64,000 bases of DNA from Psammoneis japonica (Eukaryota): positions 124,001 through 188,000 of the forward strand of contig QPGO01000092.1 of the NCBI GenBank assembly GCA_008632985.1. The letters run 5' to 3'. The first letter of the stretch is position 1; each line of letters opens with the position of its first letter. The translations under genes were made by a program, and so were the position numbers. The notes beneath the pieces are model-generated. The model did not search any database, was not told where the DNA came from, and saw only the letters and a list, made by a program, of their open reading frames with translations. Shown piece after piece: positions 1 to 52,539 of this stretch.

Positions 1-517
1 CAACAGACAATGGCATTGTTGCCATGAAGCCCAAACTGATCCTGTGAGAACAACAACATCACCATGAAACTGCCACACAGTTTTTCACCATGCTGGCAGC
101 TCCCAAAAGTCTGCCCTTTTGAAATGCAGCTTCTGCACAATTTTTGCACTGGTGCATCTCATGAGCCATGGGCTTTTTTACATGATTTTGTGTGTGGAAT
201 TTGTGCAATGGAAATGACGCCAAACATCTCATGAGCCAGCAGCTTTTTTGGGATTTGTTGTGCACACAATGCACCAGATTCTTGCACGCAGATGTAAAGG
301 CAGAAGAGACAAACAAACATGCTGGGAGCTTCTGTGAGATTCTACGCAATTGGGCAGACTTTTGCAGTGAGCAGACTTTTGGGAGCTGCCAGCATGAGAT
401 CGCCTGCCCTTGTTTCCCGCAAAACTCATTGGTCAACAGCAATGCTGGTCATCAGAACGTTTGCGAACATGATTCAAATTTAACTTCATTTTGACAATGC
501 ATTGTGCTTGATGTTTG

Positions 518-1818
518 TCAATGAACACCACCTTGTTTGCTTTGCCACTTTGCAAAGCTCATCAATGAACACCACTTCACTTCTTTGCCGTTGGCCTTTC
601 TGCATTGTTGACGATGTGCTCTGCTCCCTTGCCAGATCAGTGTGGCATCTCGACTGTCCTTGCTTTCTTCTCCATCTTCTTTGTCATCATTCTGCCTTTC
701 CTTTTCCATGTTTTCTTCCTCACTGTCCTTGTCTTTGCCAGAAAGCTCTGTCATTGCTTGTGTTTGCATCTCCAACTCTGCTGGTTTTCTCTTTGTTTTT
801 GCTCCCTTGCCCTTTCCATCACTCAGCCTCTTTTTTCCTTTGCTGCACCATGTGTTGAACTGCTCACCTGGGTGACTTGCATGCCCTGTCTTCCTTCACC
901 TCTGCAAGCAGGTCATTGAATCTTTTGGTTCCTTCATCCTTCCAAGAGTCATGCTGTCATGCTGAGTCTGTGCATGGGGGCACCGGCTTCACATCCTTCT
1001 CCTCTTCTTCATTTCCTTCTTGAATGTTCCCATCCTTCATGGCCTTGTGCTCCCAAATCTTCCAGCAGTTTTCCATCTTCAACAGTCCCAGAGCCTTGTT
1101 GCTTGCCAAAGTCAGCTCTGAAGCCTTGGCGTTTCCTGACTCCACCATCTTTCTCCACACTGCAGTGCTCTGTGTGAACTTTAGAACCTTGTCACAGAAC
1201 CATGTGCATGCTTCCTTGTTCACCCGCTTTTCACTCACAATGGTCTCCACTGTCTCTTCTTCCCAAGTTGCCAGGAATGGTTCTTCAGTTAATGCAGCTT
1301 GCTTCTTGTTCTTCTTTTTGTTCTGGTGTTTTCTTGCAGCTTTCTTTTGTTGCTTGCAGATTCCCTTGGCTTCCTGTTCTGTCAATGCCGCTGCAGTGAA
1401 TGAGCATTTCGACAGCTGCGCTGCAGCCAACACCTCCTTTTCCATGATCCCCGCAGCACTCACCTCTTGTTGCACTCTTCGTCATTGTCCAGGTGACAGT
1501 GTTCCTCTTTGTGTTTGTTGCATTGAGGGTGCACTTTTTCACCCAGTCTTCCCACAATCCTGCACAGTCTCACTTGCTGAACCTGCTCTTGGCTGTGTTT
1601 TTCCATGTCAGCCATGACACCTTGCCTCCACTCACCAGGTCTGCCTTGACAAGGAATTTTGCCCTTGGGAACAGTTCTTTCCAAGCCACCTCCTCAACCT
1701 CTCTCTTCAGAGATTGGTGATCTCCAGCAGCTCCCACTCTCAACAATGCTGCTGCTGACCTTGGGCTGTTTGGCTGCTCTTCAGCAGCCCCCTCCTTCCT
1801 TTTCTTTTTCTTTGGCAT
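518..1818 (-). pseudogene. Decayed accessory ORF of the outer Plavaka-type element (homolog of 10251-11530)
   Basis: LFPRAKFL / RNTV / ACTWFCDKVL / ALGLLKMENCWKIW match LFPQVKFL / RNTV / ACKWFCDHIL / ALVPLAMENHWQVW of the inner copy. Putative 73-bp intron at 1391-1463 (GTGAGT...CAG). Several stop codons. Confidence 0.75.
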
Positions 1819-2339
1819 GACACAAATGTTGCAGACTGCAATCTGTTGTCAAAATGTGTGGCAGCAATCATGCACAGCTCATTCTGATGTGGATGATTGC
1901 CGTTGCAATGTGAGGAGATGCTCTTGCCAATGCTTGTGATCCTTCAACTGCTGCCACAAACAATGAAAACAACCAAAATTGGGGTTGTGCATGTTTTCCA
2001 ATTAATCTGTCATTGTTGGTGTCATTTGGTGTGTGCCCAGTGATCAAATTTCCTTTTCAAAAAATGTCAATTGCTGTTGTTTGATGTTTTTAAGTTGCAA
2101 ATTTGTCATTGAAACATGTGTCTGAAACACACCAAAGTGCATTTGTCAATGTTTGTGCCTGTGACAGTTCTTGAAATTGGAGTGAACTGACTTTTTTTTT
2201 TGCACCAATTTTGTGTCTTGTTTTCCAGCATTCACCCACTTTGCATGACCAAACCAAACCAGGTTGTGATTCTGCCTCAGCACCAACATGCAATGCAAAA
2301 CTTGCCCCAGCTGCAATGCAGACAATTTGCTGGGCAAGC

Positions 2340-4411
2340 AGGTTCTTGAGCAAGGGGCAGTTGCCTGGCCGTGTTGCAAATGATCCTTCATGTGCATGCT
2401 CAAACACTTTGACCACATTCCACAGTGCCGTTCCATCAGGCCCACTTGCAAATTGGCCAGCTCAATGCACAGAAAGAACACCACCCCACTTTTGCACCCC
2501 AGTGCTGTTGTGAAGGTTGTTGGTTGAAATTCTCTTTTGGGAATGTCCGCGCACCAGGCAGAGAATCAGAGGAGCAGCTGGATGTTTCTTGGTCATCCAA
2601 TGAATCATCTCCTCCCAGATTGAGGTGACCCCAATGTGGAGCATCTGTTGCCAATGTCTGACTGGGGCATGCTGCTGTTGAACAATGCTCTTTTGATGCA
2701 GTGTGGTCATCACCCTTCAACGACAACATTTCTCCACTTGTGCCATTGTGCGACAATGAGGAACACCGTTCCATGTCATTGGAGATGTGCAATGACATTG
2801 CTGGTTTCACAAAAAGACATCATAGAAGCACCTTCAAGCTTGGTGTGCAAATGCCTCATTGCAGTGAACCAACGGCCACTCTGTCTGAATCCTTTCCCGC
2901 TCCATTGTGCAAGATGATTCCTGTCAACCTTGAAAAACCGCAGAGCAGAGTGAGAAAATGGTGTCTGTCCCACTTGTTGGACACTTGCACTTGGGTGGAT
3001 CAAAGCAACCTTGTGGATCTTGCTGATCCTTTGAGAAAGCATGTGGCAAAGGGCAACAACAACAAATGTGTTTTGGCTGTCAAGTGGCACCAAAATGCAT
3101 GCCAGGCTGGAGTGACGGATCCTCAAAAACAGCTCCTGGGATGTTTGACAGTTTGCATGGACAAGACAGGCAAAACAGCTTCCATGGGATCTTCTTGCAG
3201 AGAGACAGTCACAGTCACCTTGGCACATGTCGCCTTCAAAGAATGGCACAACAAGGCACAGTGGCAAGTGCTTGGGCACATTCCCAACTTGGAGAAACTG
3301 CCCATGCAAGTCGGAGAAGGGCCAAAGCCTCCGTGACTGCCACAAGGTGTTGAAGACAATGCTTCAGTCGCTGATTGACATTGTGGACCATGGTGGATTC
3401 AGGTGTCATGTGAGAAGGGGCAACAAGATCCAAAGCCTTCATGTGATCCTCACCACAATCCTGGTCAATGGGGATGCAAAAAGCGGTGACTGCCTGGTTG
3501 GCCGCTGTGGAGCAAAGAATTGTTGCCAGCGGTGTTCTGGGTTTTGCACGGTGGGGCAAAATGACCCAGCAATCCTTGGAAGGATTGCAAGCTTGTCCAT
3601 GCTGGAGACCTGTTGCTCATTTGGGGCAAGGCCAATGACTGTGCTCTCAATGACAAAGAGAGGATCCACTGGGCAGGAACAACAACTGCGCTGCATGAAG
3701 CATCACAACGTTTCTGCCAACTGCTTGCTTCATGCTGACTTCAGAGAGCAACCGTTGGGGCAACCCTTTCCACTGCTGGCAACATGATGCACCTGTTTGA
3801 AAACAGAGCTCTAAAAAGAGAGATTGGTGTTTTTGTAGACAGCATGGCCAATTGTGTGAAAAGCAAGGTCAATCAAATTGTGGAAAAAATGTTCAGCAGC
3901 CACAGACCCACTTGCAAATCTGTGTTTTTGTGCACCAATTTCAAAGGAGGTGCAACCTCACTTGCCTTCCTCAACTCCCACCACTGAATGGGCATGGCCT
4001 TTGTCTTTCATCTGTTGCTTCTGACAAAGGAGGGTAAAAATGTCACCCCCTCAGATGCACTGTGCACCAGTGCACCAAGCTTCTCAAAGATTTGCTTGCG
4101 TTCCATGCATGGTGCAAATTGGGAAAACCACCAGGAGGCAGAAACAATCTAAACAAGATCAGCAAGAAGATTTGGTTGCTCACATCATGCATGGTCCATT
4201 TCTCCCCCCAGGCATGAAGGAGCTGGGTGAAAGGTGCAAAAGCTGCACAAACTGCTTCACCTGCCAACATTCCTGCATTTTTTCTGCCATGCCATGAACT
4301 TTGATGATGGGCTGGGGATTTTTTCAAACTCCCATCGGCAACAGCACAACAATGCAGCTTTTCAGTGTTTCTCAGCCAGGCTGCATCACACATGGAAGAC
4401 CAAATGACGGC
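2340..4411 (+). pseudogene. Outer Plavaka-type transposase, N-terminal part (frameshifted, interrupted by insertion)
   Basis: Motifs MDKTG, LGHIPNLEK, GDAKSGDCLVGRCG, MMHLFEN, TNFKGGATSLAFLNSHH, QKLHKLLHLP, AMNFD and HMEDQM are colinear with 6523-9798. Start is approximate. Confidence 0.85.
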
Positions 4412-4671
4412 GCATCAGAGTGAACGACATCGCAACGTCTGCACACATGACAAAAATGTGTTGCCACATTGTAAAACCCACTCATCTGCATATGATGGTT
4501 TTTGTCATTTAGCCGATTGTCAATCTCCTGCTGTTCTTCATGTTTGAACACAGGTGCTTTTTAATTTTTGTGCTCAGCCTTTTTCACAACTGCTGACAAT
4601 CTTTAACAACAAGCCAAACATTGCAATTGCATGCAATGAAATTTTCATCATGTAAAGTGTGCGCTGATCAT

Positions 4672-5259
4672 TCAATCAATGACTGTGCTCCAATTGGCCT
4701 GTTCGTCCGCATCATCCTCTTCATTCCATGTGTCTTGTCCGCTCTCTTGCAAGATTTCAAATGTGTGTGCCGCTGCCGCATTGGATGTTTCCTCGTCACC
4801 GTTCCAAAAAAGCCACACTGCATTTCTTGCATTTGGGTGAACATCATCGAGCGGAAGAGGTCCCTCGAAGTGCAGAATCGCATCGCTGCTCCCCTCTTGA
4901 TGTCGTGTCATCTGCTTCTTTTTCTCTTTCTTCATTTTTCCCGTCCCATTTTTCTCTTCCTTCTTTGTCTTGGCGCTGCCTGTTTTCACCGTCTCCGGCG
5001 TCTTTCCATCCAAATCCTTCTTTTTCATCGATCCCGTCACCGTCGCCTTCATGGTGTGTCACTTTGTTTTGGATCCATGTTTCTGACTTCTCTCTGTGCT
5101 GTCCCCATTTCCAAATGTTTCTTTGTGATTGTTTGCATGCGTCACTTGAAGGCACCCACGTGTTCTTCACGTGCCTTAACGCGCATGCAGCAATCCATGT
5201 TGTTTTCCAGCACATGCACCCTTTCTCCTGATGCTGTTCTGCACAACATTTTCTTCCAT
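4672..5259 (-). pseudogene. Inner element ORF1, Lys-rich, unknown function
   Basis: 126-aa open segment 4672-5052 (basic region then acidic tail, no Tyr). The upstream part is broken or spliced. Divergent from ORF2. Confidence 0.4.
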
Positions 5260-5313
5260 CAATTCTGCACTCCGCACTGCCCTTTCCCGGCACAATCTCA
5301 TGCAGGATTTCTC

Positions 5314-5394
5314 TGGGAGAAGTCACATGCGCGTCTGGCAGGTTTTTGTGTGTGAAACTCCAAATCCCACCAGGCGCGCATGTGACTTCTCCCA
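5314..5394. repeat. 25-bp inverted repeat with 31-bp spacer between divergent ORFs
   Basis: TGGGAGAAGTCACATGCGCGTCTGG (5314-5338) versus CCAGGCGCGCATGTGACTTCTCCCA (5370-5394): 24/25 reverse-complement match. Confidence 0.9.
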
Positions 5395-5510
5395 CGCACC
5401 ACTCTGGCATGTTTCCATGGAAACCAGAATTTTGTGACTGACGCACGACCAATCTGGTGAATGCAATGGCGGACCCACGACCACAACAATCAGAGCATTA
5501 GAAGAAAACC

Positions 5511-6500
5511 ATGTCAGATGAACTCCGTCCATCCGCTGCTGAGGATTTCCGTCGCCGGATGATGGAGACAGTTGATGGTTTTGTTCACGCTGACGCTGCT
5601 CGTTGTTCAGAGGAACAGAGAGCAAAGGATGCAAAGGCTGCTGTGTCAAGATCGGTGGAAGCAATGGCAGAAGCCCGTTGTGCCGTTGTGGCTGCAATGA
5701 CCGCACTTGACAGTGCTTTGTTAAATCCAGCAACAACCACTCGCGAATTTAAGCACATCTGTGCGCAGGTGATTAAGTCATCGATCGAGACACACTGTTC
5801 AGACAACAACTGTGTTGTTGCAGTGGAAAATTGCAGCAAAGTGGAAATGAGTTTCCAATGCTTTCTTCACGGTGACGCATTTGACGCAAACGAATTGGGG
5901 CTCCCAATCTCCGTTGCGGGACATCAAAAATCAGAATTGAGGCTGCACATGCTGCACAGCTGTGACTCGACGTTGCTTCTGAGAAGCCTCAGGGCAAATT
6001 CTGACACAGACGCCAACAGAGCAGTGGAGAGGGAGCAATCTGCGATCAACAGCATCAACAAATCCATCCACCGCCGTGCCGTGCCACTCCTTCGAAGGCG
6101 ACATCTAACACAGCCGCTGCACATCCTGAAGGCTGCAATCACGTTGCTCCACGGGGCCCTCGACGATTTGAGAAGGAAAGACGTTGCCTTGCAGCAACAG
6201 TGGCAAGCTTTGTGTGATCTGTGGCCAGGCACAGATCAAATGCGGGGAGGGACATGGACCGCGATCTGGGCCATGGACGAAGAAGCCGTGGCAAGAGAAA
6301 GGGTCCTGCAGCTGGCATTGCAAATCGAGGCACAACTGGTGGCTGTCAACCAGCCTGACCACAGCGCCAACTTTCAGCAGGCGATTGTGGCTGCCAGGGA
6401 ACATTTCATGGTGCAGGATGACCAAATGGACCGTGCAAGTGGACACTGCATAGAATCTGTGAGGAAGCAATTGCTCCAAAAATGCACACACTGTGAGTGA
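5511..6500 (+). CDS. Inner element ORF2, 329 aa, helical-looking, unknown function, hypermutated
   Basis: Uninterrupted ATG-started ORF with no Tyr in 329 aa. Converges on the transposase stop with a 22-bp gap. Confidence 0.6.
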   Translation: MSDELRPSAAEDFRRRMMETVDGFVHADAARCSEEQRAKDAKAAVSRSVEAMAEARCAVVAAMTALDSALLNPATTTREFKHICAQVIKSSIETHCSDNNCVVAVENCSKVEMSFQCFLHGDAFDANELGLPISVAGHQKSELRLHMLHSCDSTLLLRSLRANSDTDANRAVEREQSAINSINKSIHRRAVPLLRRRHLTQPLHILKAAITLLHGALDDLRRKDVALQQQWQALCDLWPGTDQMRGGTWTAIWAMDEEAVARERVLQLALQIEAQLVAVNQPDHSANFQQAIVAAREHFMVQDDQMDRASGHCIESVRKQLLQKCTHCE

Positions 6501-6522
6501 ATGACAGATTGATGCGCACATC

Positions 6523-9500
6523 CTATTTTAGAAACAAATCTGACCAACACTTCCTTCTGTCCTGTGCAGCCCAAACAAATGGGGCCTTTTCTTGCGCTTC
6601 TGCCACTCCTGGACATTCTTCATGAACCAAAACATTGTCCCCAATTGCTTCGACAGGGACAACACGTAACTCAGGTGAGCACTGAGTCTTCTCAGGCGTT
6701 GAAAGCCAGTTGTTTTGTTTGTGATCAAGCTGCCAGCGACCAACCAAGTCTGTGTGCTGATGCCGTTGCCTCACAGTTCTCTGGTCAGCTTGACAAGCAG
6801 TTGGATGGACAACTGCAAAAATCGATCCTGTGCACTCCTGTTCAAAGAAACACAGCAAACGGGAGGGAAACTGTTGATCGCCCTTTCGTGTGCCAAAGGT
6901 CACACAGGCAAAGTCATGCCATGGTCCTTCGCTTTTGAAATCGGGGTGCGCACGGCACGTGTCCCTCCTGCTTGCATTGCAAAACTCTGTCTTGCAAGTC
7001 AGGTGTGCATTTTCACTGTCTTCACCAACACAATCCTCCCACTTTTCCAACATGAAGTTTGGCAACACAGGACGAACTTGGCAATGAGCATGCTTGCTGT
7101 TCCACTCAAACGTCACAGCGCCAATCCCTCGGTTGTAGGTGAGAGTGAATGTGCTTCCTCCCAGCGTGTGATTGTCCGTCCTGACTCTTGATGATTCCTT
7201 TTTCCCAGTTGGCAAAATCCAACTGTCAGCTGAAATTGCGGCGTTGAGCCTCATTTGGTCCTCCATGCGCGACACGACCTGCTTCAGAAAACTGTCGAGG
7301 TTGCGTTGTTGTGCGGCAGATGACGGCAGCTTGAAAAAGTCTTTCAAGAGACATTCCCCCAAGCCTGCGTCAAAGTTCATCGCATGTCGGCAACAACAAA
7401 GAAACACTGGGAGATGGAGTGTTTCATGAAGCTTTTGAAGCTTCCACCCACATCCTTCTGTTCACGGGATGAATTGCACCATCCGGTCTATGAGGAGACG
7501 GATTTTCTCGTTTATTTTCTGAACAGATGAGCCGGGAGTTGCACTTGTGATGGGTGGATTGCCCAGCCTGCACCATGCGTGGAAGACAAGAAGGTCCTCA
7601 AGCAATTGAGTGAATTGCCGGACGCTGCAGTTGAGTCTTTTTCCCTTGTGTTTTTTCTTTTTTTGGTTGTCGTCACCATCCTCAGCCTCACTCTCCTCTT
7701 TCTCATCCTCATTTTCGTCCCAGTCACCCTCTTTGGACTCCTTCGACCTTTCATCGTCAGAGTCATCCAAGTGCTCACTGGGTTGGCAGCAACTCTCAAA
7801 GTTTGCTTTGGGCATCTTGCGATTCTCTGGAACAATGGGTTCGTCTGCGTCCTCATCAAGGAAGCATGACTCACATGCGTTTCGTCCCTCGCTGGTCAAC
7901 AGGAGAAGGTAGAAAACAAAAGCCATTCCAGCCCAGTGGTGAGAGTTGAGGAAGGCAAGTGACGTTGCTCCTCCTTTGAAGTTTGTTCGCAAAAAGGATG
8001 CTTTGCAAGTTGACCGGTGATTGCTGAAAATCCTTTCCACCATGCTGTCCACCTCACTTGCGACCACAGGTGTCATGCTGTCTACAAATGAATTGATTGC
8101 CCTTTTCAAGGTGCCATTTTCAAAGAGATGCATCATGTCACTTGCTGTCGCAAGGGCAACACCGCATGGTTGTGCACCAAAGTCTGCCTCAAAAAGACAG
8201 TTGGCAGGTGCGTTGTGTTGCTTGAGGCAATGCAAGATGCCCAACCAGTGCTTCCTTTCTTGGTCTGATCTGTTGTCGTCGTTGGCCTCAGTTTGCACTT
8301 GGTGGAGATCCAGTCCTTGGACAAACTCGCATTCAATCCATGGGTCGTCCAGTTTGTTGAAGCCAGTTGGGCAAAAACGACAGCAACGTTGACGACAGTT
8401 GTGACCTCCGCATCGTCCGACGAGACAGTCGCCGCTTTTTGCATCTCCTGTGATGAGAACGATCAGTGGGATTGCGTGGAGGTGTCGCATCTCATCCCCT
8501 CGTCGCACGCATGTTTTCATGCCTCCTTTTCTCATGACTTCCAAAAGTGGCTCCAAAATGACACGCAAGCACGTGTGGCAGTCTCTTGACGAGCGTCCCT
8601 TCTCCGCCTTGCGATTGTTTGAGAGATTCTTTGCTGCAGATGACGACATCTTTTCCAAATCCGGGAGACAACCAAGAGGTTTCCAGACACTCTTGTCCGA
8701 CCATTTGTTGAAGGCAACATGCGCAGAGGTCATGATCACTGGTTCTCCGCAATGTGATCCCATCCCTTGTGTCCTGCCAGTCTTGTCGAGGTGAATGACA
8801 TTGCACTCAAGAAATTGTTTCTCTGGGTCAGTTGTCCATTCTTCGTAACTGCGCCTGCACCACTCACCCACCAAAAGGCACTTGTCATCTGGTCCCTTCG
8901 CTTTGCACTTCCCAAAAGGATTGTCTGGATCGGCCACATTCTCTCTGCTGCACCACAGGTGAGGATCGAGTGAAAACTGTTCCCAAACCTTTGTGAAATC
9001 CCATCTTGGCACTGACACTCGTTTTGGCAAACCGGTTTTGAAATTTTTGGTTTCTAGAGTGACAGGAATAGACTCGCTGGGTGGAAGAGGGAAATGCTTG
9101 GTTAAGGTGTGCATCAACTCTTTTCTCCTTGGCAGAACTGTGCCAAGCTCAATGTTGCTGTTGCCAGTGTGCCTCTCAATGAAATCAACAATGCAGTCGC
9201 ACAATTCCAGGGGAGCACCACGTGTGTCCATGAGCTTCTTGCACAACTCTGCGCAAGCTCCGTCAAGATTTGTCAAAGAGGGAGTAGAAGCCAAGGCCTC
9301 TTCTGCAGGAGCGTCACACCTGCTCCCCAAACGTTGATCCTCATCGTCAATGTCCTCTTCCTCCTCCATTGTCACGTCCAACACTGCAGCAAAGGATTGA
9401 CCACCGCCAACATCCAAATCGTTCATTGCCAAAAGCTCAACTCCTTGCATGCTGTGGTTTGATGAAATGGAGGACATGTCGTCCATTCTGTGCGGCGCGT

Positions 9501-9798
9501 CATCCGGGGAGGGGAGCAAGGGGCTGCTGCTCGGATCACTCGTTGAAGATCTTGGGAATCTGCCACGAGTTGATCGCCTGGGACAGGATTCATCATCATC
9601 AGAGGACAAAAAGGAAGAACCGCCGCTTTCTTCAGGTGGCCCCTCTGTTGTGGCAGGAATGTCACTTTGATCTGGGATCAGATCTTGGGTTTGCAACTCT
9701 TGGGCAACTGAGCAACACGTCGGTGAGCATCTCCAATGGCAGGCTGTTCGCAAAAAACTTTGGCCACAACCGGGACAGAGAAGAGGGTTTCCGTCCAT
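6523..9798 (-). pseudogene. Plavaka-type transposase, about 1090 codons, one in-frame TGA at 7462-7464
   Basis: ORFs 7462-9798 and 6523-7407 are in one frame (FIP*TEGCGWKLQKLHETLHLP; TGA probably from CGA). N-terminal CxxC...H...C finger, HLDKTG, GEPVIMT, GDAKSGD, CRFC, DMMHLFENG, NFDAG.GE, RAHPDF...PWHD. Family recognised from motifs only, no search run. Confidence 0.8.
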
Positions 9799-10250
9799 TG
9801 TAAATCAGACAACATTGACAGGGCCTTCATCAAGACTCATGCTCGTCGTCCTTGTCTTGTGGATGAGAAGGGAAAAAAAGAACAACACGCAAAAAATGGC
9901 AGGAAATTGGCAAACATTACATTGTCTTCCAGATTGGGATGATTCTTGTGGGCATGACGCATCTGCATTTTGATTTTTTATCTGGCATCCACAGTGAACA
10001 TTGCACTTTTTATTTGCCATCAAAATGCAGGATGTTGTCTCCATTGAAACGCAATGACAGCCAAGTCAAAAAGCAAGTTGGGCCATTCGTTGTTGCACAC
10101 AAATGTGTTTTCAAATTTCAGTGTTGCTGACAACAATTCGTGCAATGTCACAGAGAAAAATGGAGTGCCTGGCTGTCTCAACACGACCCAAACGACGGTT
10201 GCACTGTCAAACAGTGCCACTCCTCTCATTGTTGCCGTGAAAAGATCAAG

Positions 10251-11530
10251 ATGTCGTCTCCAGCACAACCGGCAAAGAAGCGAAAGAAAAATGAGACTGC
10301 CAAGCCAATGAGCCCGAGACTTCAGGCAGTGTTGAAGAGAACAGGTGTGCAGGCAGCACATGGTGCATTGAAATCAGAAGCAGAGAAGGTGGCTAGAAAT
10401 GATCTCTTTCCACAGGTGAAGTTTCTGAGTCCATCTGAATTGGCAAGCAATGGGAGCGTCTCAATGTTTGTCAAGAAACAGATTGCTGGTGGCAACATGG
10501 ACACTTCAAATTGGTCAGGAGCTTGGGAGAAATGGGCAAAAAAGGCGGCAAAAAGGCAAATTGACAATTGCAGAAATACGGTGTGTTTGGCTGTTGGGGC
10601 GGAGGCAATGGCACGCAAGTCAAGTGACCAATGTGTGTGATTCGAGAGTTGCGCGCATCTCACAAGAAGATGATGGCGATGCTTTGTCCACATGGGCATT
10701 GTCACTGAGGAAGAGGGAAAGGAAAAAGAAAAGAAACTCAAGGCATCAGACAGGAGGAAAAAGAGGAAAAAGTCAAGCCGTGACAAGAATGAAGAGAATG
10801 ACATCCCGTTTGTGCCGACATGGGATCCGTTCAGCCTGGGCACTGTCACCGGCGGCAAACGAAGGAACAAGCAGGCATGCAAGTGGTTCTGTGATCACAT
10901 CCTGCCTCAAACCAAGCAAAAGCAGGCATGGAGTGGTGCCATCAAAACTGGGAATGCACAGGTCTCACAGTTGCCCACGGTCGGTGATGAAGCTTTGGTG
11001 CCATTGGCCATGGAGAATCATTGGCAGGTGTGGGCATGCAGGAACAAGGAGGAGGCGGTGGAAGAATTGGGTGAGGAAATGGAGCCCAAAGAAACAAGGC
11101 CTGCCCCTCGGCACACGAAGCCAAAGAAACAATGAGTGTCTTGGGGAGACAACGGAATCAATTGGTTCAACGATTTGTGCAAAGAGGTGATGAAAGACAG
11201 AGACTCCAAGGAGGGCAAGGAGTTTGAAAAGTGACATGCAGAGATCAAGAAAAGCGAGTGCGAGAAGTCCGGAGAAGCAAAAAAGAAGAAAAAGAAAGCA
11301 CCGGCTGGTGACACGGACAAGGTGAAGGCAATGAACAGCCTGATGGTGGAGAGCAGCAGGGACGACAACAGTGACAACGATGAGCAGGAGGAAGGCGCAA
11401 AAGGAAAAACGGACGACGGAGGAGACAAGTCCGATGGAGACGAGTCTGATGATGATCGTTGGCTTGGTTTGAGAGAGTTGCAGCAAGAAAATGTGCGCAC
11501 AGTTTGCACAGCACTCGGTCATTGCACTGC
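10251..11530 (+). pseudogene. Inner element ORF4 (accessory), with an inferred destroyed intron at 10615-10695
   Basis: MSSPAQPAKKRKK...LFPQVKFL...EALVPLAMENHW...WGDNGINWFNDLCKEV, with internal TGA stops. Homologous to 518-1818 and divergent from the transposase in both elements. End is approximate. Confidence 0.75.
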
Positions 11531-11847
11531 AGACGCAACAAGGGATTGACTTGACCGATGAAATGCTTTTCTCGTTTAAAATGATGTTTGCGAAAATCAA
11601 CAAACCAAGGATTGTGTGGAAAAGCAATCATGCATTGGCATGTGGCAACAAGGTGGAGGCAGACACAGCGATGTGGACACAGTGAAAAACAGCACACACA
11701 ATTCTTAACAAGTTGTTGCAATGTTGGCACAGCAAACTTGCAACCAGAGGTTGGCCTTTCATTGCATGACAACAATGTTTTGCAACATTTTGATGAATTG
11801 TCATCATGCAAATCTACACATTTTTAACATTTCATGCACTCTGATGC

Positions 11848-12587
11848 GCGCCAAGAGCCATCTTGGCTGACCCACAGACTTTATCTAAGTTGGAAAAAAG
11901 AGACATTCCACGTGAGATGGCACAACACAGACTTGGCAGGAGCACTTTTACATTTCAGTGCAGTGATGCAAACAAGGCAGTTTCCTTCCTTTGGCCAGGG
12001 AAGCAAAAACATTGTCAGGTTCACCCTGTCTTGTTGAAATTTGCAGGGAAAAAACGGAGGGACCATGTTGGCAACACAGAGACTTTCTCCAACACACTTC
12101 TGTGCAAAACTGAGTGTTGCAACAAAAACGGAGTTGACACTTGCAGAGCATGTCCTGACTGCAACAGCAAAGGCCGATGCGCGACTGGGCAAATGTCAAC
12201 TTCGGGACTCACCACGGCAATTTGTTCTTCTCATTGTGGCTGCATTGTTTTTTTTTAAAACAAAAGTGATGGTGAGTTGTTTGCAATTGTCCACCCTTGC
12301 ATGCACCAGATGGACAAGCGTTTGATTGTGGAACACATGCAACACACCAACCTTCTTGTCAGTTGGTGGCAACTGGACCAAGTGAAAAACCATGATTTGT
12401 CCACGGGGCTGAGAAAGCCATGTGCTCTCCCAAAATGTTCTTGGTGCCCATCAACACCATTGGAGACAAGCTGCTGGCATGTGAAGAGCAGCTGGGAATT
12501 GTGGAGTCACACAAAGAAATGAAGCATGTGTGGGCAGTTCAAGACCAGAGAAAGACATGGGCAGACAAGTTTCACAACAGCGCATGA
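11848..12587 (+). pseudogene. Outer Plavaka-type transposase, C-terminal part
   Basis: HRLGRSTFTF, KHCQVHPVL, CKTECCN, DTCRACPD and VWAVQDQRKTWADKF match HTLGGSTFTL, AHCQVRPVL, CKTEFCN, DTCRAHPD and VWAAQDRRKCWSDLF of the inner copy. Confidence 0.85.
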
Positions 12588-13916: not shown

Positions 13917-14128
13917 TCTTCATCACTGGCAGACTCCTCCAACAATGAGTGCAATTTGTTGCCAGCTTCAAATCTGGCGGGAACGGAGGCAGATGTGTCA
14001 AAGGTGAAACACTGCTCTTTCTCAACCAACTCTGAAATGCACTCATCTTCATCACTGGCAGATTCCTCCAACAATGAGTGCAATTCGTTGTCAGCTGCAA
14101 GTCCGGCAGGAATGGAGGCAGACATGTC
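13917..14128. repeat. 83-bp direct repeat, two copies 129 bp apart
   Basis: TCTTCATCACTGGCAGA(C/T)TCCTCCAACAATGAGTGCAATT... at 13917-13999 and 14046-14128. Encodes N(E/K)LHSLLEESASDED twice on the minus strand. Confidence 0.9.
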
Positions 14129-15160
14129 CGAGTTGTGACCTTGCCCTTTCTCTGTGGCATCTGCAGTTGTGCACTCCTTGTGCAGGGTGAGATCAGAGTC
14201 AACACACTCCAACATTTGATGCTCATTGGTGCCATGGCCCTTGCAAAGATGCAACCAGACAGAGAGAAAGTGAAAAGGTCTTGACCAGAAAATGGACCGT
14301 GGAACATGTGATTGAACATGCCAGTGCAACGATTGCACTCAGATTCACACAGCTGGCGCTCCATTCCATTGCCACCAAGATCTCCAGTCCTGGTCTCTGA
14401 TGTCATGCAATCATGCATGAGAGGCCATTCTTCCAGCTTTGCATGCTTCAGTTGTTGCTCAGCTCTGGAATTGAAAACTGGACACACCATGTTGTTGAGA
14501 CAAGGATGGTCCTTCACTGCAATGCCAGCAAGTGCCAGACATTGCAACACTGACATGAGACAAATTTCATTAAAATCAGCACCCCGTTTGGCCCAAACAT
14601 GGCAAGCATCCTTGCACCATTGCTCCACAAGATTTGCACAGAACTCATCTTTGTCCACATTGTTGTTCATCCAAAGCAGCATTGCATGAATTTTGTCCAC
14701 CACATTGCATCTGCCAGGTCATTGGCTTTTTTGATGCAGTTGGGGTCCATGAAGACCTCAGAGAACTTGCTGTGCATCAAGTTGGCAGGGCTGATCTGCC
14801 CAACCTGTGGGTTGCCAAACAACACACCAAACTCATCCATCATGAATTGATGGAAGAGAACAAATGGATCTTTGCCTGCACAGCAAAGGTTGGGCAAGTG
14901 CTTGTCCCCGACATGGCAGAATTGGTGGCAGCAAGTGGGACAACCCACCAGAGTTGCAAGACAAATGACCCATTTTGGGTCAGGCCCAGATCTGCAAATG
15001 ACATTCTTGAACTGGCAAAGCATGGTGGCTGGAGCTGACAAGTGAAAGTCTCCAAGAGGGAAGGAAGGGAATTTCAAATGGTCCATGTGCACGTTGGGAA
15101 GTCCAGTGTCACCACCTCCGCCTGTCACAACATCATCCCACAGCCTGCTGTCATCATCCA

Positions 15161-15180
15161 GAGAGAGAGAGAGAGAGAGA
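15161..15180. repeat. (GA)10 microsatellite
   Basis: Directly visible in the sequence. Confidence 0.95.
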
Positions 15181-18100
15181 TGCTTGAACATCTTTGCAGA
15201 CAGTGCAAAGTCAGGATGGGAGTGATCATCATGCTGCAGGTCAAAGTCTTGAAGTGGCTGGGAAGTCTGGCACAGCTCAATTGCGGTGCATCTGAGTCAG
15301 CATTGGCTTCATGCTGCACTTGTCATCACAGCAGTGACCAATGGCAGTTCTGCTGTTGCTGACTGCCTTGAATGACCAAATGTCACTGAGTGCATCCATG
15401 ATGAAGAAACAACTGGCAGCAGTCTTCCTGTGGCTGTTGACACCAGGTGCAGCTGTTGCTGTCATGATGTCCCTCACAAAATTGACCGGGAGAGATGCAC
15501 AGTCCCTGCATTGTGACATCCTTGCATTGGAAGCAGAGGCAACCAACTCTTCACCCAAGACTTTCAAACACTCCTTGTGCTGAAGGGACCAGTTGGAGGG
15601 TGGGGGGACTCAGTTTTCTGAGCTCCACCTCATTTTTGCAAAGCTGAATTGAGTTGAGAACATCCGCAACCCCATGGCCTTCATCTTGGCAGAAACATGT
15701 TTGTTGAAGTTGTCATTGGGCTCAAATGCATCAAGACTGTGTGTGGCAATGGGCTCAGCTGACTTGACAGATCCAGGCTCCCTCAGATGACACTTCCGTC
15801 CAGCACAGCCAAACTTGATCCTTCTTCAGTGTCCAGCAAACTCAACAGCAACAGATCCATCATGCTTGAGATTGGACTTGCCCTTCAACAAAATGAAAAG
15901 CAAAAGGGTGGGGATGCAGACACAAAGACCACCAAAGTGAGCTTGGTGCAATGCACTGGCTTGTCTGGCAACCAACACTTCCTCAGAGCAGCAACCCAGC
16001 TGAGGTGGGCAATCAACGCAGACCCTGGAGCCTGCGGTGGGATTGCTCAAGGAGCTTTTGTTGGAAAACTTGTGCCAGTTTTGTCTGAAGTTGTCTGTGA
16101 GGTAAAAGTCAGTGGCGGAGTGGTGCAGCACACACTCAATGTTGGTTGCATTGTCAATGATGTGCAGGTGTGAGACATGGGCAAACACTTCCTCTGTGGC
16201 AACAGCACGACACTTGGACGGGTCAAAGCATTGATGCATTGTTGACTTGTCCAGCCATGACATGTCATCGAGGTCTGTTGGAGGAGAGGCAAGATCAAGC
16301 CATTTGCAGAAACATCAGCATGGGTCATGCATCCTTTTGAGGGAGACCCTGGGGAGGGAGAAGAGGGTTTGGCCAGAGCCGTGGTTTCCAACAAGGTGGG
16401 GATGTTGGCGGCAAGGGTGCGGTGCACCCCCCTGGATGACGACACATTCCCGGATGCCAAAGGAGCTGCTGGGTGGGAGCAAGAAACAGTCGTGACCTTC
16501 TTTCGACGGACAGTCAAAGAAGGCTCTTGTGGAGAAAATAAAGTCAACAAGGAAAAAGACACATGAGACAACGATGACACATGACAGCAGTGCAGGTGCA
16601 GGGATGTGCTCACTGGCATCATGCAAGCAGGTCCCATCTTTGCGTGTCCTTCTTCTAATTTTACGTCCAGTTTTAGATTTGTTTTCTTGCTTGTGATCAT
16701 CTTCCAAGCAGCTGGCCCTCTGACCACGCATTCTGCAACAAAGCATTGTGAGCTGCTTGGAGCACCAGGGTCATGTGCTGGGTTGCTCTTCAGGACAGTG
16801 CTTCCTGAATTCACATTGCAACATGGCATCAATTTTGGCTTTGCAAGCCCATTGATGGGCAGCAGCATCACCTTCCACAATTGCCAAGTCCTCAATGTCA
16901 CAAAGATTGTTTCCAAGAAACCCCTTGACTTTGTCCTCCTCAGAACCTGCTGCACTCGACTTGCATGTGACAAGAAATCTGTTGGCAAATGTGCGCCACT
17001 CTTTTTGAGTGTTGACCTGACAAAAGATCTGCATGAACCAACAGCTGGTGTCCTTGGGCTTGTGCTGGACACAGTGCATGACCATTTTGGTGACAAAGCA
17101 TGCACCATGAAGGTCATGTGCTTGGTCATCAATCAATTCTTGGAGACTTTTGCACTTAAAAAAAATGGAAACAAGGCTCGCCAGTGACAGGATCATTGAG
17201 GTCATCGCTGGCAATGACATGGTGCACAAACTTGACCATTGCCTTTGTGTTGTGGCAAAGGTCACAATGTTGCTCCTCTTCTTTTTTGTCTCTCCAGGCA
17301 ATGTGGAGAAAAAGAGAGCATCCTCCAAATTTTGATGTCAAAGAATGCAGCTGCCTTTTTTCTTTCGGGGGATTTCTTTGTCAACCAACCACGAGTCATG
17401 ACATGGGACCAGATGCCAGGATGTCTGAGAGATTGCCTCACAATGTTGTTGGCGCAGATGAAATGATCTGTGTCATCAAAATCAACATCATCAGGAAATT
17501 GGAATGAGGGATTGGGGTTGACCTTGTCTGCGGATGGGGCAAAGTCATTGGAACGGCACACGCACAGGTCAATTTGATTTCGAGGAGAGGGTGTGCTGTT
17601 GTGAAATGTGCAGAAAATTGCGCATGTGGAAAAAATGCTAAAAACACAGCAGGCAACCATGCACAGAAATTCTGAAAGAGGTCAGAAAAAATGGGGGAAG
17701 TGCGTGATGACTTGGGCATGGATGACATGCCAGCAAGTGCAGTGATGCACACAGTGGGTGGAGAAAATAAAAACCACGTTCAAATGCAAAGCATGAAAAG
17801 AAAAGAGATTTCATTGTCACAAGTCATGGGGAACTTTGCAAAGGCAATTGATTGAGTGTCAAACTCATTTGATGAAAACAACGTCAATTGAATTCTCTGA
17901 CAATGCTCCTCACGAAACTTGCACTTCAAATGCGCTGTGAAAAATTCTTTCACATGTGATGTTTGAGTTGAAAAGAACAACAAAAATGCTGTTCAATGTC
18001 ACAAATGTTGACAATGAAAGCAAAAACTGCAATGTTGCAGCCTCTGATGTGGCTTGCAGGGAGATCCATGTTGCGTTTGTTGACCCAGCAGGTTGTGGCC

Positions 18101-21100
18101 TTGTGCTGCACTGCATTTTTCTGTGTTGTGAGCCCATTTTGACTTGCCTGGCTTTTGTGATCTGACAGAGCCTGTGCCAAGTTTCCACTCCTGCAAGGAT
18201 CATTTTCACAAAACCATGACATTTTTTGGCTGCAGGACATTGCTGGCAGCCTTCCTTGAGCTGTGGGAACAACTTTCTGGGCACCTTCACAGTGGTGACT
18301 TGCAAGGGAGGAAAGAGTGCCATTGGTGCAATCATCAAGATCCAAGCTGTGCTTTTCAGGCACACCCTCATCTGCCAGCAGAGAGGCCACAAAGTGTGCC
18401 TGAGCGGCATTTGCAGCACCTCAACTTCTCTTGTCTGGACCCATCTTTTGACAATGAATCAGCCCAAGGATTGTGCTCCTGAGCTGTCATTGCAGAGGTG
18501 CTGTGTTCTCCAAAACCTCCCCTTCTCACCAGAAATGAGAGACCCACAATGTCCCATCTGTTTTGTGTCACTTTACAAAAAGTTCCCAACTCCAAGGGTG
18601 GAGCAACAACTCTGCTTCTTGTCTGCCATGACAGCCAGATGCTCTGAGCCACAAGGATCAACTTGCTCCCAAGGCTTCTTGTCAGCAAGAAACAACCACT
18701 GTGCTGTTTGATGCAGTGTGCAGCATGTGCTTCAACCACCCTCTTGGCATGCAACACAGCTGTGCAGATCCACTTTTCTGTCAAAGCACACATCTCCTCA
18801 CCTCCAGCAGCTCTGCCTGCCATTGTGGCTTGGCTGGCTGTTGTCACAAATCTTGTTGATGCCCTGAAACACAACTCTGCAGCATCGAAGTTGCCCCCAA
18901 CACCTCTGTGACTCTTCAACCACTGAGACACCATCAGCATCCCCAACATCCAAGAAGTGTCTGCTCAACCCACATGCACTGCTCTCCATCCACAAATGTT
19001 TTGATCACAAGGTTGTGGGCAAAGCAACAATTTTTCTGAGTTTGTCTGCTCTGTTTGATGCCAGCAACATCATTGCTTGGATGGGACAGTTCACACCACA
19101 TGCTCAACTTGCCAGTGGATCTCTTTTTGCAACAAATCCAGCCCCAACACACTGGACCACCCCATCTGCAAAATGCACACTGTGCTCCTTCTGCTCCTCT
19201 GTTCTTGTGGTCTCTTTGATGCCTCATTTGCTGTCCCTCATGCTTCTGCCCAGGCTCTTTAACTGCTTGCTTGGTTTGAAAGCTTTGTGCTCCACAAACC
19301 AAGCTCATGTCATCATTGTTCACCACGCGGCACTTGCCAGTTGTTAGCCTCAACTTCCAGCAGCATGCCATGGTGGCAGATGGGATTTGCTGTTGGCGGC
19401 AACAACCCTTGAGATGATCTGGCAGCTTGCAGCAATTTGGGCAAAATTGAGCAAAAATTCAAAAATGATGTTTGTCAAAATGTCAATTCACCTGCACAAA
19501 TGTCAACTGGATGTCTGCAGAGAGACACCACAGTTTGCGTTTGTTGGCACACAGCCTCTGATGACAACAGCAATGGAGATGTGCTTTTGTCCCAGGTGAG
19601 AAATGCACGCATGGAGAGGCCGGGCATTGTGCCCACTTTTCTTTTCTTTCATCATTGTGCATTTTGTGTGAACAAATCTGATGGATTTCCTCCAATTTTC
19701 TTGTGTGGCTGCTTTCTCCAGATCTGGCTGCTTTGAAGTATCAGCCATTGCTCTCTTTGCCTGGAGGGCATGGACAACAAACGGAAAGTTTTCATTTGGG
19801 GGCAACCGCCCCATTTTGGCTGGCACAAGAAAATGGCGGGAAGAAGCTGCACACAATGGCTGCTTTTGCTGCAGCTTTGAGCCTGTTTTTCTCTTTCTTC
19901 CATTGCGCACCTGAAAGTTTTCACAACCAATGCCCACCATGCCAAAAAAAGCAGTGCTCTGGCCAGCTCCATTGTTTTCATGAGAGAAAAGCTGGGGGGT
20001 CTGACTTTGCATGTGTGCTTTTTTGCAAAGTCTTGGCCATCTCAAAGACCAAAGATCAGCAAATTTGCAAACCTGTGTGGGAGCCTCTGCTGAAGCCACA
20101 ACATCAACAAAGTTTGGCAGCTGTGGAGCAATCAAGTGATTTGAAAGGCAGGGGCAGAGGCAACAGCAAAACAAACTGTTGACAAAATTTTGGCTCTGGA
20201 GTGACAACAAGTTGTGACTTGGAACAAAAGAGGCAGAACAAAGCATCTCTGTGTGGCACTTGGATGTTGCTGTCATCATCACCCTGCTTTGTTGTGGTGT
20301 TGAGCACACTGTTGTTTTTGCACCCAGGCTTCTCTCAGCTGCCATTGTGTGCCCTCAAATCTGGGCAGCACCGCTCTTTTGTCCGTGCCAAAATCTCCAG
20401 TGTGTGTGTGTGCTTGTGAGACCTGCCATCAAATCAAAGGTGCTGTCCACAGCAACTTAAGGTGCAGACATGACAGAGTGCAAAGAACATGCCAGTGTGT
20501 CCAAAAACACATGTTGTCATTTCCATCTTGCAAAACAAGAGTTGACTGTCATGCAGCTGGAGAAACAGAAACAGCAGCAGCGCAGCACCATTTTTTCCAT
20601 GTGCACAGCTTGTGGCTCAAGAGAAACCTTGCAACTTGTCCAAAAGGGGTGAAAGCACATCTTCTGGAGACAGCAAGGAGCCCCCTCAGCTCAAAAAGTT
20701 TTGCACAAAAACCACATGGCTTGGCAGCCATGGAAAGTCTGGAGAGAGCAGCTGCCACTTTTGAAGATGGCACACTCTGCCATGTCACAACCCTGGATGT
20801 CATGGCAAAAGAATGGCAAAGCCAGAGAGGTCACCAAAATGACAGAAATGACAAAAAAGCTGGCATGTGTTGCTTCGAGCTGTGCTTTGTTGCTGGGCAC
20901 AAGCAAGCACACCTCATTTTGATATGAAAAAGTTTCTCTCAGAGCAGCATCGTCAAATGGGCCATGTCGCTGGATTGTTCTTCTCACATTGTGCCACAGT
21001 GAGTTGCTGTGAAATTGCTCTCCAAATGCACCTCCACAAACCTCTGACAAATGGCCGTCTGCACTTGCTTTGCAAGGCTGAAGTTGAGCCCTTCGATCCA

Positions 21101-21798
21101 GCCGCGCTGTCGGCTCTGCCTGTGTGTTTTGTCATCAACAGCATGCCAAGAAGATGAGCCTGTTCTTGTCAACATGTGCAGCCTTTGAACACAACACCAG
21201 ATCCAGTCAGGAGCAAATGTGGCTTTCCCTCATGCTTTCAATGTGGGCTCAATTTTGTGACACGAATGCAACCCAGCCCTCACTGGCACGTGCGTGCGCG
21301 GCATTGGTGTGGTGGCTTTTCGAAATTTCATCATCTGCAGCTGGCGGATTTCTCCTGTGTCCGTTGGATCGTCGACAGGTAGGCGGCGCGGGTGAAGCTG
21401 ACGCACTCTCACATTATTGGTTTCCCTAAGTAATTTCATGTGTTTGATGTCCAACAGCTGGCAGTTTGTTATCCTCAGTATTCGTTACTGTTTGTTGTCA
21501 TGAAACCAATGTTTAGAATTCCCAAAACGGGGTGTGAATTCTCAACGGCAGATGGACAACGCAAAAATTCTGCGATTGGCGAATTCGGAGTATGCTGATC
21601 AAAATCGTGTAGAATTGTACGCAGTTATCATACGGAGGTTTCGTGTGTCATCAGATTGACTCACCGAACAAATCCACTTCTGGAAGTATTTTTTCGATGA
21701 TCCAATCTGCATTCATTCATTCATCGCGTTGTTGTGCGACCAACATTAGTTGGCCATTCTTCGTTGAAAGTGATATATGAAGGAAGAAGCATAAGGCC

Positions 21799-49990: not shown

Positions 49991-50345
49991 GTGATTATTT
50001 ATCTTTTGCAGATGGCAGCTGCTGTGTCACTTGAAATGGACCTGTGTATTGTGGTTCTTTTTTTGCAATCGCGGCAACAAAGATTGATTGCAGGGCGCTT
50101 CCAAGCGCAAACAACAGCAGTCTATGTCGATTGTTCAGACGCATCTCAAGTCTATGGGTAGGGAGAAAAATATCCAAGTACTCCGTGTCTTGGAAGGATA
50201 AGAAGGCAGGTGCAGGGCTTGGAAGAAGACATCCTAGTTATATTGCAGAGGCATCAATCCCTTGCTAGTTTGATTTTAAGGTGAAGAAAGGCTCTTGGAA
50301 CGAATTGAGAACGTTAAATTTGTTAAAAGGTGCAAACTTTGCGTA

Positions 50346-51260: not shown

Positions 51261-51479
51261 AGGTTGGCGACGCTGTTGTGGCTCTTGCTGCTGCTAGTAG
51301 TAGCTAGTGTCGGGGTCGCGTCGCCAGTGAGGTTGAAGGTGACAAGGGGCCTTCGCGATCTTATGTGAATTGAAATTGTGAGACGAAGATTCCAAGATGA
51401 TGGTGTCAAAAGAGGCGCGCAGACCCACACGTAGGAATCATTTAGAACAACATCGAAAAGGCCAAAAAAGGAAATTCCG

Positions 51480-52530: not shown

Positions 52531-52539
52531 TTAAAAACC

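Follow-up and report, generated by a model that had tools for sequence, protein, structure and literature searches.

Which process can nearly eliminate the dinucleotide TA from more than 21 kb of transposon-derived DNA while the adjacent host genes stay normal? This question is raised by a stretch of 64,000 nt from Psammoneis japonica (assembly GCA_008632985.1, contig QPGO01000092.1, positions 124,001-188,000, forward strand), which was analysed over its full length and is referred to as the window. A sequence-only reading had proposed a repeat-restricted hypermutation of TpA to TpG/CpA, opposite in direction to fungal repeat-induced point mutation (RIP), and had stated that no described pathway does this. 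We consider it very likely that transposon-derived DNA in the window has suffered a near-saturating, region-targeted change of T:A to C:G at TpA, combined with ordinary CpG decay. A TpA would become TG when one strand is hit and CA when the other strand is hit, and the decay of CpG to TpG/CpA would be laid on top of this. The signature is the same as that measured in Bigelowiella natans, where, according to a recent preprint, exactly this spectrum was found (Mettrop et al., bioRxiv, 10.64898/2026.01.13.699255), and thus a described counterpart does exist.

The contents of TA, CG, TG and CA were computed in intervals of 2 kb and 500 bp, and the borders of low-TA DNA were set by two-state segmentation. 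The observed/expected ratio (o/e) of TA is 0.00-0.18 over positions 1-21,000, as compared to 0.27-0.94 in the genes at 24-46 kb. Segmentation resulted in three depleted blocks (Table 1) with a TA density of 3.4-3.7 per kb, which contrasts with 36-44 per kb in the remaining window. In total, only 94 TAs are found in 27,390 bp of depleted DNA but 1,389 in 36,002 bp elsewhere. Within the blocks, TA o/e is 0.04-0.07 (genic parts: 0.54-0.59), while TG and CA reach 1.54-1.88 (genic parts: 1.11-1.18). The ratio TA/(TG+CA) is 0.013 in the old blocks and 0.268 in genes. The near-absence of TA from the first 21 kb (72 TAs in 1-21379, 3.4 per kb) and the abundance of TG/CA had been recognized correctly from the letters alone. 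The counts made by eye were close, with about 12 TAs claimed where 13 occur (1-4400) and 35-40 claimed where 34 occur (4401-11800). The return of TA had been placed at about 21413; it begins with single TAs at 21380 and 21415, and density is normal thereafter. What had been missed are two further blocks, the depletion of CpG, and the unchanged G+C content. The latter is 0.481 in depleted DNA and 0.475 elsewhere, because the changes TA>TG/CA and CG>TG/CA offset each other.

The main block is open at the left end of the window, and its 21.4 kb are therefore a minimum length. The second and third block are separated by a gene with a normal TA content, which codes for a short-chain dehydrogenase, and the process must thus be sharply confined. 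TA loss is restricted to mobile DNA, the segments containing transposase remnants, while adjacent host genes are normal. Within the blocks, non-coding DNA and all six reading frames are equally TA-free. When 35 frames of at least 130 amino acids (aa) from the outer parts of the main block and from the two small blocks were compared with Pfam, no credible family was found, with one sub-threshold match to a domain of unknown function (DUF). An additional low segment at 23488-24095 is only due to a run of Ns at 23504-24048, which is a scaffold gap of 545 Ns.

The main block contains two nested elements. A younger DNA transposon is located within the transposase gene of an older, more decayed element, since the outer transposase gene stops at 4469 and resumes at 11920. 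The ends of the inner element were set from its inverted repeat and from the points where single-copy contigs of a sequencing run (X1) stop (4466 and 11819). Its transposase matches the Pfam family PF18759 (Plavaka) with 21.1 bits and an E-value of 2e-4, which is under the cut-off of 26.3 bits, and we refer to the element as Plavaka-like. A full HMMER scan (phmmer) of 1.84 billion representative sequences returned 909 homologues, two of which (P0080 and P0089) have a precomputed PF18759 hit; the best 150 of the 909 were used further. A word-indexed protein search with the same mutated transposase gave no match, and a repeat finder applied to the window reported few repeats at the DNA level.

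The direction of change is evident from two lines of evidence. The first is a mass balance, for which the genic DNA of the window served as reference. For five sub-blocks, the lost TA plus lost CG per kb compare with the gained TG plus CA as 84/79, 55/52, 83/82, 87/89, and 77/67. The second is tyrosine, which is a built-in tracer of TA loss because both Tyr codons contain TA. The 780-aa frame of the inner transposase has 0.3% Tyr and 5.0% Cys, while the medians of the homologues are 2.9% and 2.2%, respectively. In an alignment of 45 homologues there are eight columns where Tyr is in the majority. At these positions, Tyr is found only once in the inner copy, which otherwise carries Cys (4), His (2), and Arg (1), while the other conserved residues in this alignment are mostly retained. 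In the decayed outer copy, eight sites of this kind are occupied by His (3), Cys (3), Trp (1), and Arg (1), and not a single Tyr is left. Comparison to the closest relative (P0005, 61% identity over 572 aa) gives the same picture: 18 Tyr residues have been replaced by Cys (10), His (3), or other residues (3), or have been retained (2). Thus, Tyr is retained at 2 of 18 sites, while the remaining residues are retained at 348 of 548 (Fisher p 9e-6), and Tyr to Cys is level with Glu to Asp (10 each) as the commonest replacement. Mass balance and the conversion of 13 of 18 Tyr to Cys or His bear out the proposed mutational conversion of TpA to TpG/CpA. The changes are A>G or T>C at TpA, giving TpG or CpA, as is also found for the codon at 8791-8793.

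TA loss is not a trait of the transposon family, as homologues have a median of 2.9% Tyr and as none of 20 metagenomic loci of relatives is TA-poor (gene TA o/e 0.42-0.78 in all 20). These relatives were collected with an alignment of 7 sequences as query. An alignment of 35 sequences was too diverse for this purpose, and a single-protein query in the metagenome scan did not result in a confirmed relative. It might still be argued that TA avoidance is native or selected, as a protection from a nuclease that reads TA or in favour of RNA stability, for example. The inner transposase frame is indeed long (1093 codons with one stop), and there are full-length homologues which are practically Tyr-free (P0080, 1290 aa; P0111, 1200 aa). 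However, an open frame is not a sign of function or selection, because TA>TG/CA changes cannot make in-frame stops. Also, a Tyr conserved in 39 of 43 homologues has been turned into a mutational product (Cys/His) rather than into the conservative Phe, non-coding DNA and all six frames are TA-free to the same degree, and the 20 relatives have normal TA. We consider native avoidance highly improbable.

Hypermutation at TpA would create no in-frame stops and would leave frames that are long and open but crippled. In depleted DNA, TAA and TAG together occur at 2.6 per kb, as compared to 16.6 per kb in genes, while TGA stays at about 20-24 per kb. Stop-to-stop frames of at least 150 aa number 38 in 1-21379 but only 19 in an equal length of genes, a surplus which is due to the vanished TAA and TAG codons. 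Gene finders are expected to call spurious Tyr-free proteins in such blocks, and the Tyr-lacking proteins escape word-based homology searches. The one stop codon within the inner transposase frame is a TGA at 7462-7464, where five of five aligned homologues have Arg, and this is consistent with a change of CGA to TGA.

Both strands have been affected, as had been claimed. Along the inner transposase gene, Cys, the product of A>G on the sense strand, is interspersed with His, the product of the same change on the antisense strand. Where the inner and the outer copy share an ancestral Tyr site, the outcomes (inner/outer) are Cys/His (4), His/Cys (1), Cys/Cys (3), and His/His (1). The same sites have thus been resolved differently in the two copies, which indicates that the events were independent and stochastic. 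Equivalent differences occur in a tandem pair in the second block (47099-47356 and 47366-47624; 259 nt, 93% alike), which include three TG/CA doublets and one TA/TG difference. Three of the 150 homologues (P0080, P0107, P0111), which are 1127-1290 aa long, contain just a single Tyr each. Conserved Tyr columns are occupied by His (4) and Cys (4) of 14 in P0080, Cys (6) and His (1) of 9 in P0107, and His (7) and Cys (1) of 14 in P0111, and the combinations differ column by column. P0080 originates from an ENA metagenome contig, and a search with this protein returned only itself and P0089. Judged from these replacement patterns, the three proteins probably represent the same hypermutation in other genomes or metagenomes. 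The process has acted repeatedly, in more than one lineage, on mobile-element DNA.

The few surviving TAs reveal a site preference. Survival is 0.55 for TTAA, 0.24 for CTAA/TTAG, 0.13 for GTAA/TTAC, and 0.012 for ATAC/GTAT, while GTAC is completely absent (0 of about 94 expected). A four-parameter additive two-strand model, where the hit rate on each strand is set by the base 3′ of the A, fits all ten classes with relative rates of 2.2 (T), 1.9 (C), 1.0 (G), and 0.4-0.5 (A). Compared to a uniform rate, the likelihood-ratio chi-square with 3 degrees of freedom is 94 with host genes and 86 with the 20 relatives as reference, where both references are proxies for ancestral frequencies and where some residual TAs may be new mutations. 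The same ranking of 3′ bases recurs when old blocks and inner element are analysed separately. The preference is therefore T-A-Y (Y, pyrimidine) over T-A-G over T-A-A. With both strands open to attack and a stochastic outcome at each site, a TA followed by a pyrimidine, which is equivalent to a TA preceded by a purine, is the favoured target.

An enzyme with a T-A(-Y) motif would be responsible for the changes. To our knowledge, the ADAT2/ADAT3/TadA enzymes are the only known class that would convert A via I to G in a T-A context. Their target in tRNA, A34, always follows the invariant U33, which resembles the adenine following T in the TpA of the blocks. For this reason an ADAT2/TadA-type polynucleotide adenine deaminase, acting on DNA and converting A via inosine to G, would be the most likely candidate by analogy, and we see an about even chance for it. 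Chromatin state or methylation would mark the target, and silenced DNA would recruit the enzyme.

The process may be the same but the chemistry may take place on thymine, with a modified T at TpA in silenced DNA, such as an oxidised or otherwise hypermodified one, that mispairs with G and leads to T>C. As TA is its own complement, A>G and T>C are inseparable by sequence, and the flank preference can equally well be read as a T preceded by a purine. Survival does not distinguish this from an A followed by a pyrimidine, and the Tyr outcome ratios are too heterogeneous to do so, so that the Cys:His ratios favour neither description. A hand tally of the base before the Tyr codon is uninformative as well (Cys outcome in 7 of 11 cases after a purine and in 5 of 7 after a pyrimidine). 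We know of no thymine modification that gives near-complete T>C. The requirement for a 5′ T, in contrast, fits polynucleotide adenine deaminases, and the B. natans preprint also favours adenine deamination and names an ADAT2 homologue (10.64898/2026.01.13.699255). Thymine chemistry is thus rather unlikely.

Adenine deamination is also known from ADARs, and ADAR/APOBEC systems resemble the situation in the window in that enzymatic deamination riddles parasitic nucleic acid with transitions. These enzymes act on RNA or on single-stranded intermediates of reverse transcription, so that one strand is marked, whereas here both strands are affected. ADARs are metazoan proteins, and their known order of 3′ neighbours differs from the T, C > G > A found here. 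RNA editing of the ADAR type via an RNA intermediate was rejected as sole cause, as the inner element, a cut-and-paste DNA transposon, is bounded by terminal inverted repeats and as Cys and His outcomes are interleaved; replication via RNA with changes on one strand does not apply.

CpG is also depleted, with o/e values of 0.18-0.19 in the outer parts of the main block, 0.09-0.28 in the two small blocks, and 0.62 in the inner element. CpG loss affects all ten NCGN contexts (0.12-0.34 in old parts), as is expected for CpG>TpG/CpA changes of the 5-methylcytosine (5mC) type, and is present here as a second process. In the outer transposase, Arg has changed to Gln, Cys, Trp, or His at 8 of 18 sites, which is a CpG signature. 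Diatom transposons are CpG-methylated, and the CpG loss is in line with a decay of silenced transposons that is driven by methylation and continues in the inner copy. Decay of 5mC is rejected as sole cause, as it cannot remove TA and as the CpG footprint is not coextensive with TA loss, for which reason the two are treated as separate processes. In the inner element, a TA o/e of 0.07 is combined with a CpG o/e of 0.62, and TA removal is taken to be the faster of the two. A single enzyme may nevertheless act on both A and C. At two block edges (21000-21380 and 51444-52000), TA-poor DNA has a CpG o/e of only 0.64 and 0.55, respectively.

Fungal RIP is the obvious relative, as there too transitions in a dinucleotide context hypermutate mobile DNA and leave diagnostic indices. 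In Neurospora and other fungi, RIP changes C to T, creates TpA, lowers G+C, makes stop codons, and requires duplication. In the window, the direction is opposite: TpA is destroyed, G+C is not lowered, and TAA and TAG vanish. RIP needs duplicated sequence, but here single-copy DNA has been mutated and a duplicate outside of the blocks has been spared. RIP is therefore rejected as sole cause, and the statement that neither RIP nor 5mC decay explains TA loss stands.

The claim that mutation is repeat-restricted is not supported. Stretches at single-copy depth are as TA-free as the high-copy inner element, so that the effect is independent of copy number, with the proviso that copies less than 90% alike are outside the depth count. 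Furthermore, a repeat copy located just outside of the second block (46981-47147) has kept 10 TAs while its partner inside the block (49769-49929) has lost them. Both observations point to targeting by region rather than by homology. Regions of silenced or foreign DNA would be the aim, with borders sharp to about 100 bp, and not sequence duplicates.

The high copy number of the inner element became evident from run X1, for which contigs were built separately. A second run (X2) was compared at 21689-23491, and RNA data were not among the runs listed for this sequence. The depth summed over these contigs, which is not a strict copy number, is 5,270-24,200 over the inner element, whose ends exceed the middle in depth. 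It is 65-130 at 11.8-15.5 kb and 18.2-21.3 kb, and 53-60 in the flank at 21.5-23.5 kb. This indicates that the inner element represents a high-copy DNA-transposon family, on the order of a hundred copies. In one X1 contig (depth 889), positions 6787 and 9815 are linked via three other letters, so that most of the transposase gene is gone. This is an internal-deletion derivative as is typical for non-autonomous DNA transposons.

X1 also speaks to the concern that TA loss is a sequencing or assembly artefact, where a modified base at TA is miscalled. X1 contigs with a word depth of about 55-65 agree with 9,476 nt of TA-free single-copy DNA except for 2 substitutions, so that separately assembled data at about 60-fold depth give the same sequence. 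The library type is unrecorded and the run, which is from one sample, may be the assembly's own source. However, the state of a given site, TG or CA, is constant across many family copies which have private changes of their own, while a miscall would follow the strand that was read, and nearly Tyr-free homologues occur in other public data sets. The gap of 545 Ns would suggest a short-read scaffolded assembly, and in B. natans the same spectrum was obtained with Illumina NovaSeq, as stated in the preprint (10.64898/2026.01.13.699255). An artefact is very improbable.

Comparison of X1 with the window resulted in 152 variable places over 20 kb, 126 of which are transitions. Contexts were tabulated for the best-supported 40 rows, of which 28 are within the inner element. 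At 15 of these 28, a CG of the family corresponds to CA or TG in the window, and this represents private CpG decay. At 8793, the alternative family base was found at a depth of 1536/1692, and the Tyr codon TAC of the family majority has privately become CAC in the window (8791-8793). In addition, window copy and family differ by a TG/CA doublet at 8971-8972. A few TA losses thus came after family amplification. Most of them predate it, because independent loss of about 250 ancestral TAs per copy predicts several hundred variable places. If family members that are equally TA-free are taken to refute hypermutation, as had been suggested, this situation is largely found; it dates the losses to before amplification, and their mutational origin stands.

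Two differences between X1 and the window in single-copy DNA (14569, window CA and run CG; 21502, just outside the block, window TG and run TA) are too few to interpret. At 21327-22520, X1 has insertions at half depth (TCA behind 21327, TA behind 21349), and differences are denser in the flank than in the block. These are probably due to allelic variation in a diploid.

Several points weigh against the process proposed here. The evidence consists throughout of mutational footprints, de novo mutations not being among the observations, and ancestral composition was approximated by proxies, either host genes from the window or distant relatives. Being a single sample of uncertain origin and unknown platform, X1 is not independent support. 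Only 2-3 of the best-supported 28 rows in the inner element involve TA and most of its TA losses are common to its many copies, so that action in place rests on very few sites there. The mutated family has still reached a high copy number, which is ill-suited to an effective defence. Across elements, the Cys:His ratio is 10:3, 3:3, 4:4, 6:1, and 1:7, and no simple strand rule can be derived from such variation. No deaminase gene was found among the genes of the 64-kb window. Finally, a fragment resembling a transposable element (24051-24347, reverse strand), located beside the N run, is not TA-depleted. Its 99-aa frame is related to the 327-aa frame contained in the third block (E 2e-9, with 42% identity over 65 aa), and at the nucleotide level the two are too diverged to inform on TA (4 TAs). 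This mobile-element-like fragment has escaped the process; the scaffold gap (23504-24048) may hide the rest of the element.

From the predominance of shared losses it could be concluded that the pattern is purely inherited, the DNA having been mutated once, elsewhere or long ago, with nothing TA-specific acting now. The inner family shares most of its TG/CA states, 152 variable places face the several hundred that are predicted, and CpG decay accounts for 15 of the best-supported 28 private differences. However, a conserved Tyr codon was privately changed from TA to CA and a TG/CA doublet distinguishes the window copy within the family. The tandem pair of the second block carries TG/CA doublets, and the repeat outside of this block keeps 10 TAs which its inside partner lost. 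Moreover, elements of different age and family are found together with single-copy DNA in one sharply bounded TA-free zone. Back-mutation from TG/CA should also restore TAs unless removal continues, and continued removal in the old blocks is suggested by a TA/(TG+CA) of 0.013 in DNA that is old enough for CpG to have fallen to about one fifth. A purely inherited pattern is improbable.

The proposed process would have a role in genome defence. It is doubtful that this defence is effective, as the mutated family still amplified; TA loss preceded the high-copy amplification and did not stop the spread of the inner family. Such a lack of evident protection would be expected if TA loss were no dedicated defence but a by-product of replication or repair bias at TpA in silenced chromatin. 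TA loss occurs together with CpG decay, which generally marks DNA that is methylated and silenced, and single-copy DNA is depleted as strongly as repeats. On the other hand, the extreme specificity (TA/(TG+CA) in old blocks versus genes, complete absence of GTAC) and the sharp borders resemble a motif-specific enzyme, and activity in B. natans was episodic and line-dependent, as reported in the preprint (10.64898/2026.01.13.699255). We consider a by-product to be possible but not likely.

The TAs that remain in the inner element are concentrated at its two ends (4410-4660 and 11600-11849), with 9 of 36 in the terminal 2 x 250 bp. The density is 18 per kb at the ends compared to 3.9 per kb in the interior (Poisson p 2e-4 in a post-hoc test). 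If crippled copies were mobilised in trans, the terminal TAs could have been retained by selection for ends to which the transposase binds.

Hypermutation of TpA to TpG/CpA has been described for integrated viral DNA in B. natans (Mettrop et al., bioRxiv, 10.64898/2026.01.13.699255). In mutation-accumulation lines, 231 of 302 nuclear single-nucleotide mutations were in integrated giant-virus and virophage regions. All but one of the 231 were A>G or T>C, every one at TpA. The rate was about 6e-7 per site per generation, about 1000-fold over background, and activity varied between lines. As a long-term footprint, 124 clusters of TpA-poor windows and 324 TpA-depleted predicted coding sequences (CDS) were reported, the latter enriched in DDE and reverse-transcriptase domains. 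The authors propose an ADAT2 homologue as the candidate enzyme. They cite ADAT2 enzymes for which both A and C are substrates, the editing of DNA by BjADAT2 of amphioxus, the 5′ U preference of ADAR and, in their discussion, the properties of RIP. The words CpG, context, flanking, and stramenopile do not occur in the main text.

Both systems share the T:A>C:G change exclusively at TpA, on both strands, in foreign DNA with normal rates beside it, and with single-copy DNA among the targets. The long-term footprint is also common, consisting of clusters depleted in TpA and enriched in CpA and TpG, where DDE and reverse-transcriptase domains are enriched among the predicted CDS. The differences are in host, target, and extent. 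The host is a diatom-like stramenopile here but a chlorarachniophyte there, and DNA transposons, including a high-copy one, are targeted here instead of integrated viral DNA. TA o/e is 0.04-0.07 over more than 21 kb here, compared to a Rho of 0.45 in the nucleocytoplasmic large DNA virus (NCLDV) region of B. natans. The overlay of CpG decay and the preference for a 3′ neighbour are resolved here, while the rate was measured only there.

A literature search, from which subscription journals were largely excluded, found the phenomenon only for B. natans, with no report of TpA>TpG/CpA from a diatom. The kind of process has thus already been described in another supergroup, and the diatom-like host is new. 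Mutation of invading DNA from A:T to G:C was not known from any eukaryote until 2026, and the sole report is for a single alga belonging to the Rhizaria. The diatom-like stramenopile represents a second case, with a much higher saturation, and this suggests that such mutation occurs widely among marine protists. The degree of saturation, the flank preference, the independence from copy number, the coexistence with CpG decay, and family amplification after mutation add to what has been reported for B. natans (10.64898/2026.01.13.699255).

We tentatively raise the possibility that chromatin-targeted adenine deamination at 5′-T-A-Y-3′ is common to Rhizaria and stramenopiles, as an ancient defence which mirrors RIP, and that the saturated Plavaka-like family has become immune and is still amplified. 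In this case, the family would have run out of targets, being almost TA-free and Tyr-free with TAs kept only near its termini. It would be mobilised in trans, or the Tyr-free transposase would still work, so that saturation confers immunity as the outcome of an arms race. As some diatoms are genetically tractable, knock-outs could be used to look for the enzyme. Both the biology of genome defence and the technology of base editing would have an interest in a natural DNA adenine editor with sequence specificity.

Table 1. Positions of TA-depleted blocks, nested transposons, and host genes in the window. Densities are per kb; HSPs, high-scoring segment pairs.
Feature	Position	Strand	Remarks
Main TA-depleted block	1..21379		72 TA, 3.4/kb; TG/CA o/e about 1.8; nested transposon remnants and unannotated DNA
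Outer element transposase, decayed 5′ part	2629..4469	+	tblastn of 150 homologues, 229 HSPs, best E 1e-63
Inner element, Plavaka-like DNA transposon, about 7.4 kb	4410..11849	-	Inside outer transposase gene; TA o/e 0.07, CpG o/e 0.62
Terminal inverted repeat, left arm	4410..4430	+	13 identical bases, then 5 of 8; from local alignment of the ends
Inner transposase frame, 1093 codons	6526..9804	-	780-aa and 312-aa frames; one in-frame TGA
Codon CAC (His), Tyr in 39 of 43 homologues	8791..8793	-	Family majority TAC; private TA>CA
Terminal inverted repeat, right arm	11829..11849	-	From local alignment; an X1 single-copy contig begins at 11819 (11849 minus 30)
Outer element transposase, 3′ part	11920..12572	+	tblastn best E 8e-29, residues 355-532 of P0005
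Second TA-depleted block	47280..49995		10 TA, 3.7/kb; CpG 5.2/kb; no recognisable gene
Short-chain dehydrogenase gene	49996..51443	-	TA 40.7/kb, normal; between two depleted blocks
Third TA-depleted block	51444..54738		12 TA, 3.6/kb; contains the 327-aa frame
Host genes	remaining window		PHD, bromodomain+SET, PI-PLC, NOB1-type PIN, LRR, SF3B3, MINDY, ATG3, short-chain dehydrogenase, cyanase

The host genes in the remaining window allow assignment of the sequence. For SF3B3, all seven organism-labelled matches among the 120 listed are from diatoms (63-69% identity), and the best listed match has 80%. Due to these matches, the window is considered diatom-like and not derived from B. natans. A 476-aa frame on the reverse strand (58144-59571), for which no family was found, is flanked by two genes (57124-57887 and 62113-62893) which also lack a Pfam family but are paralogous to each other, with 71% identity at the DNA level.

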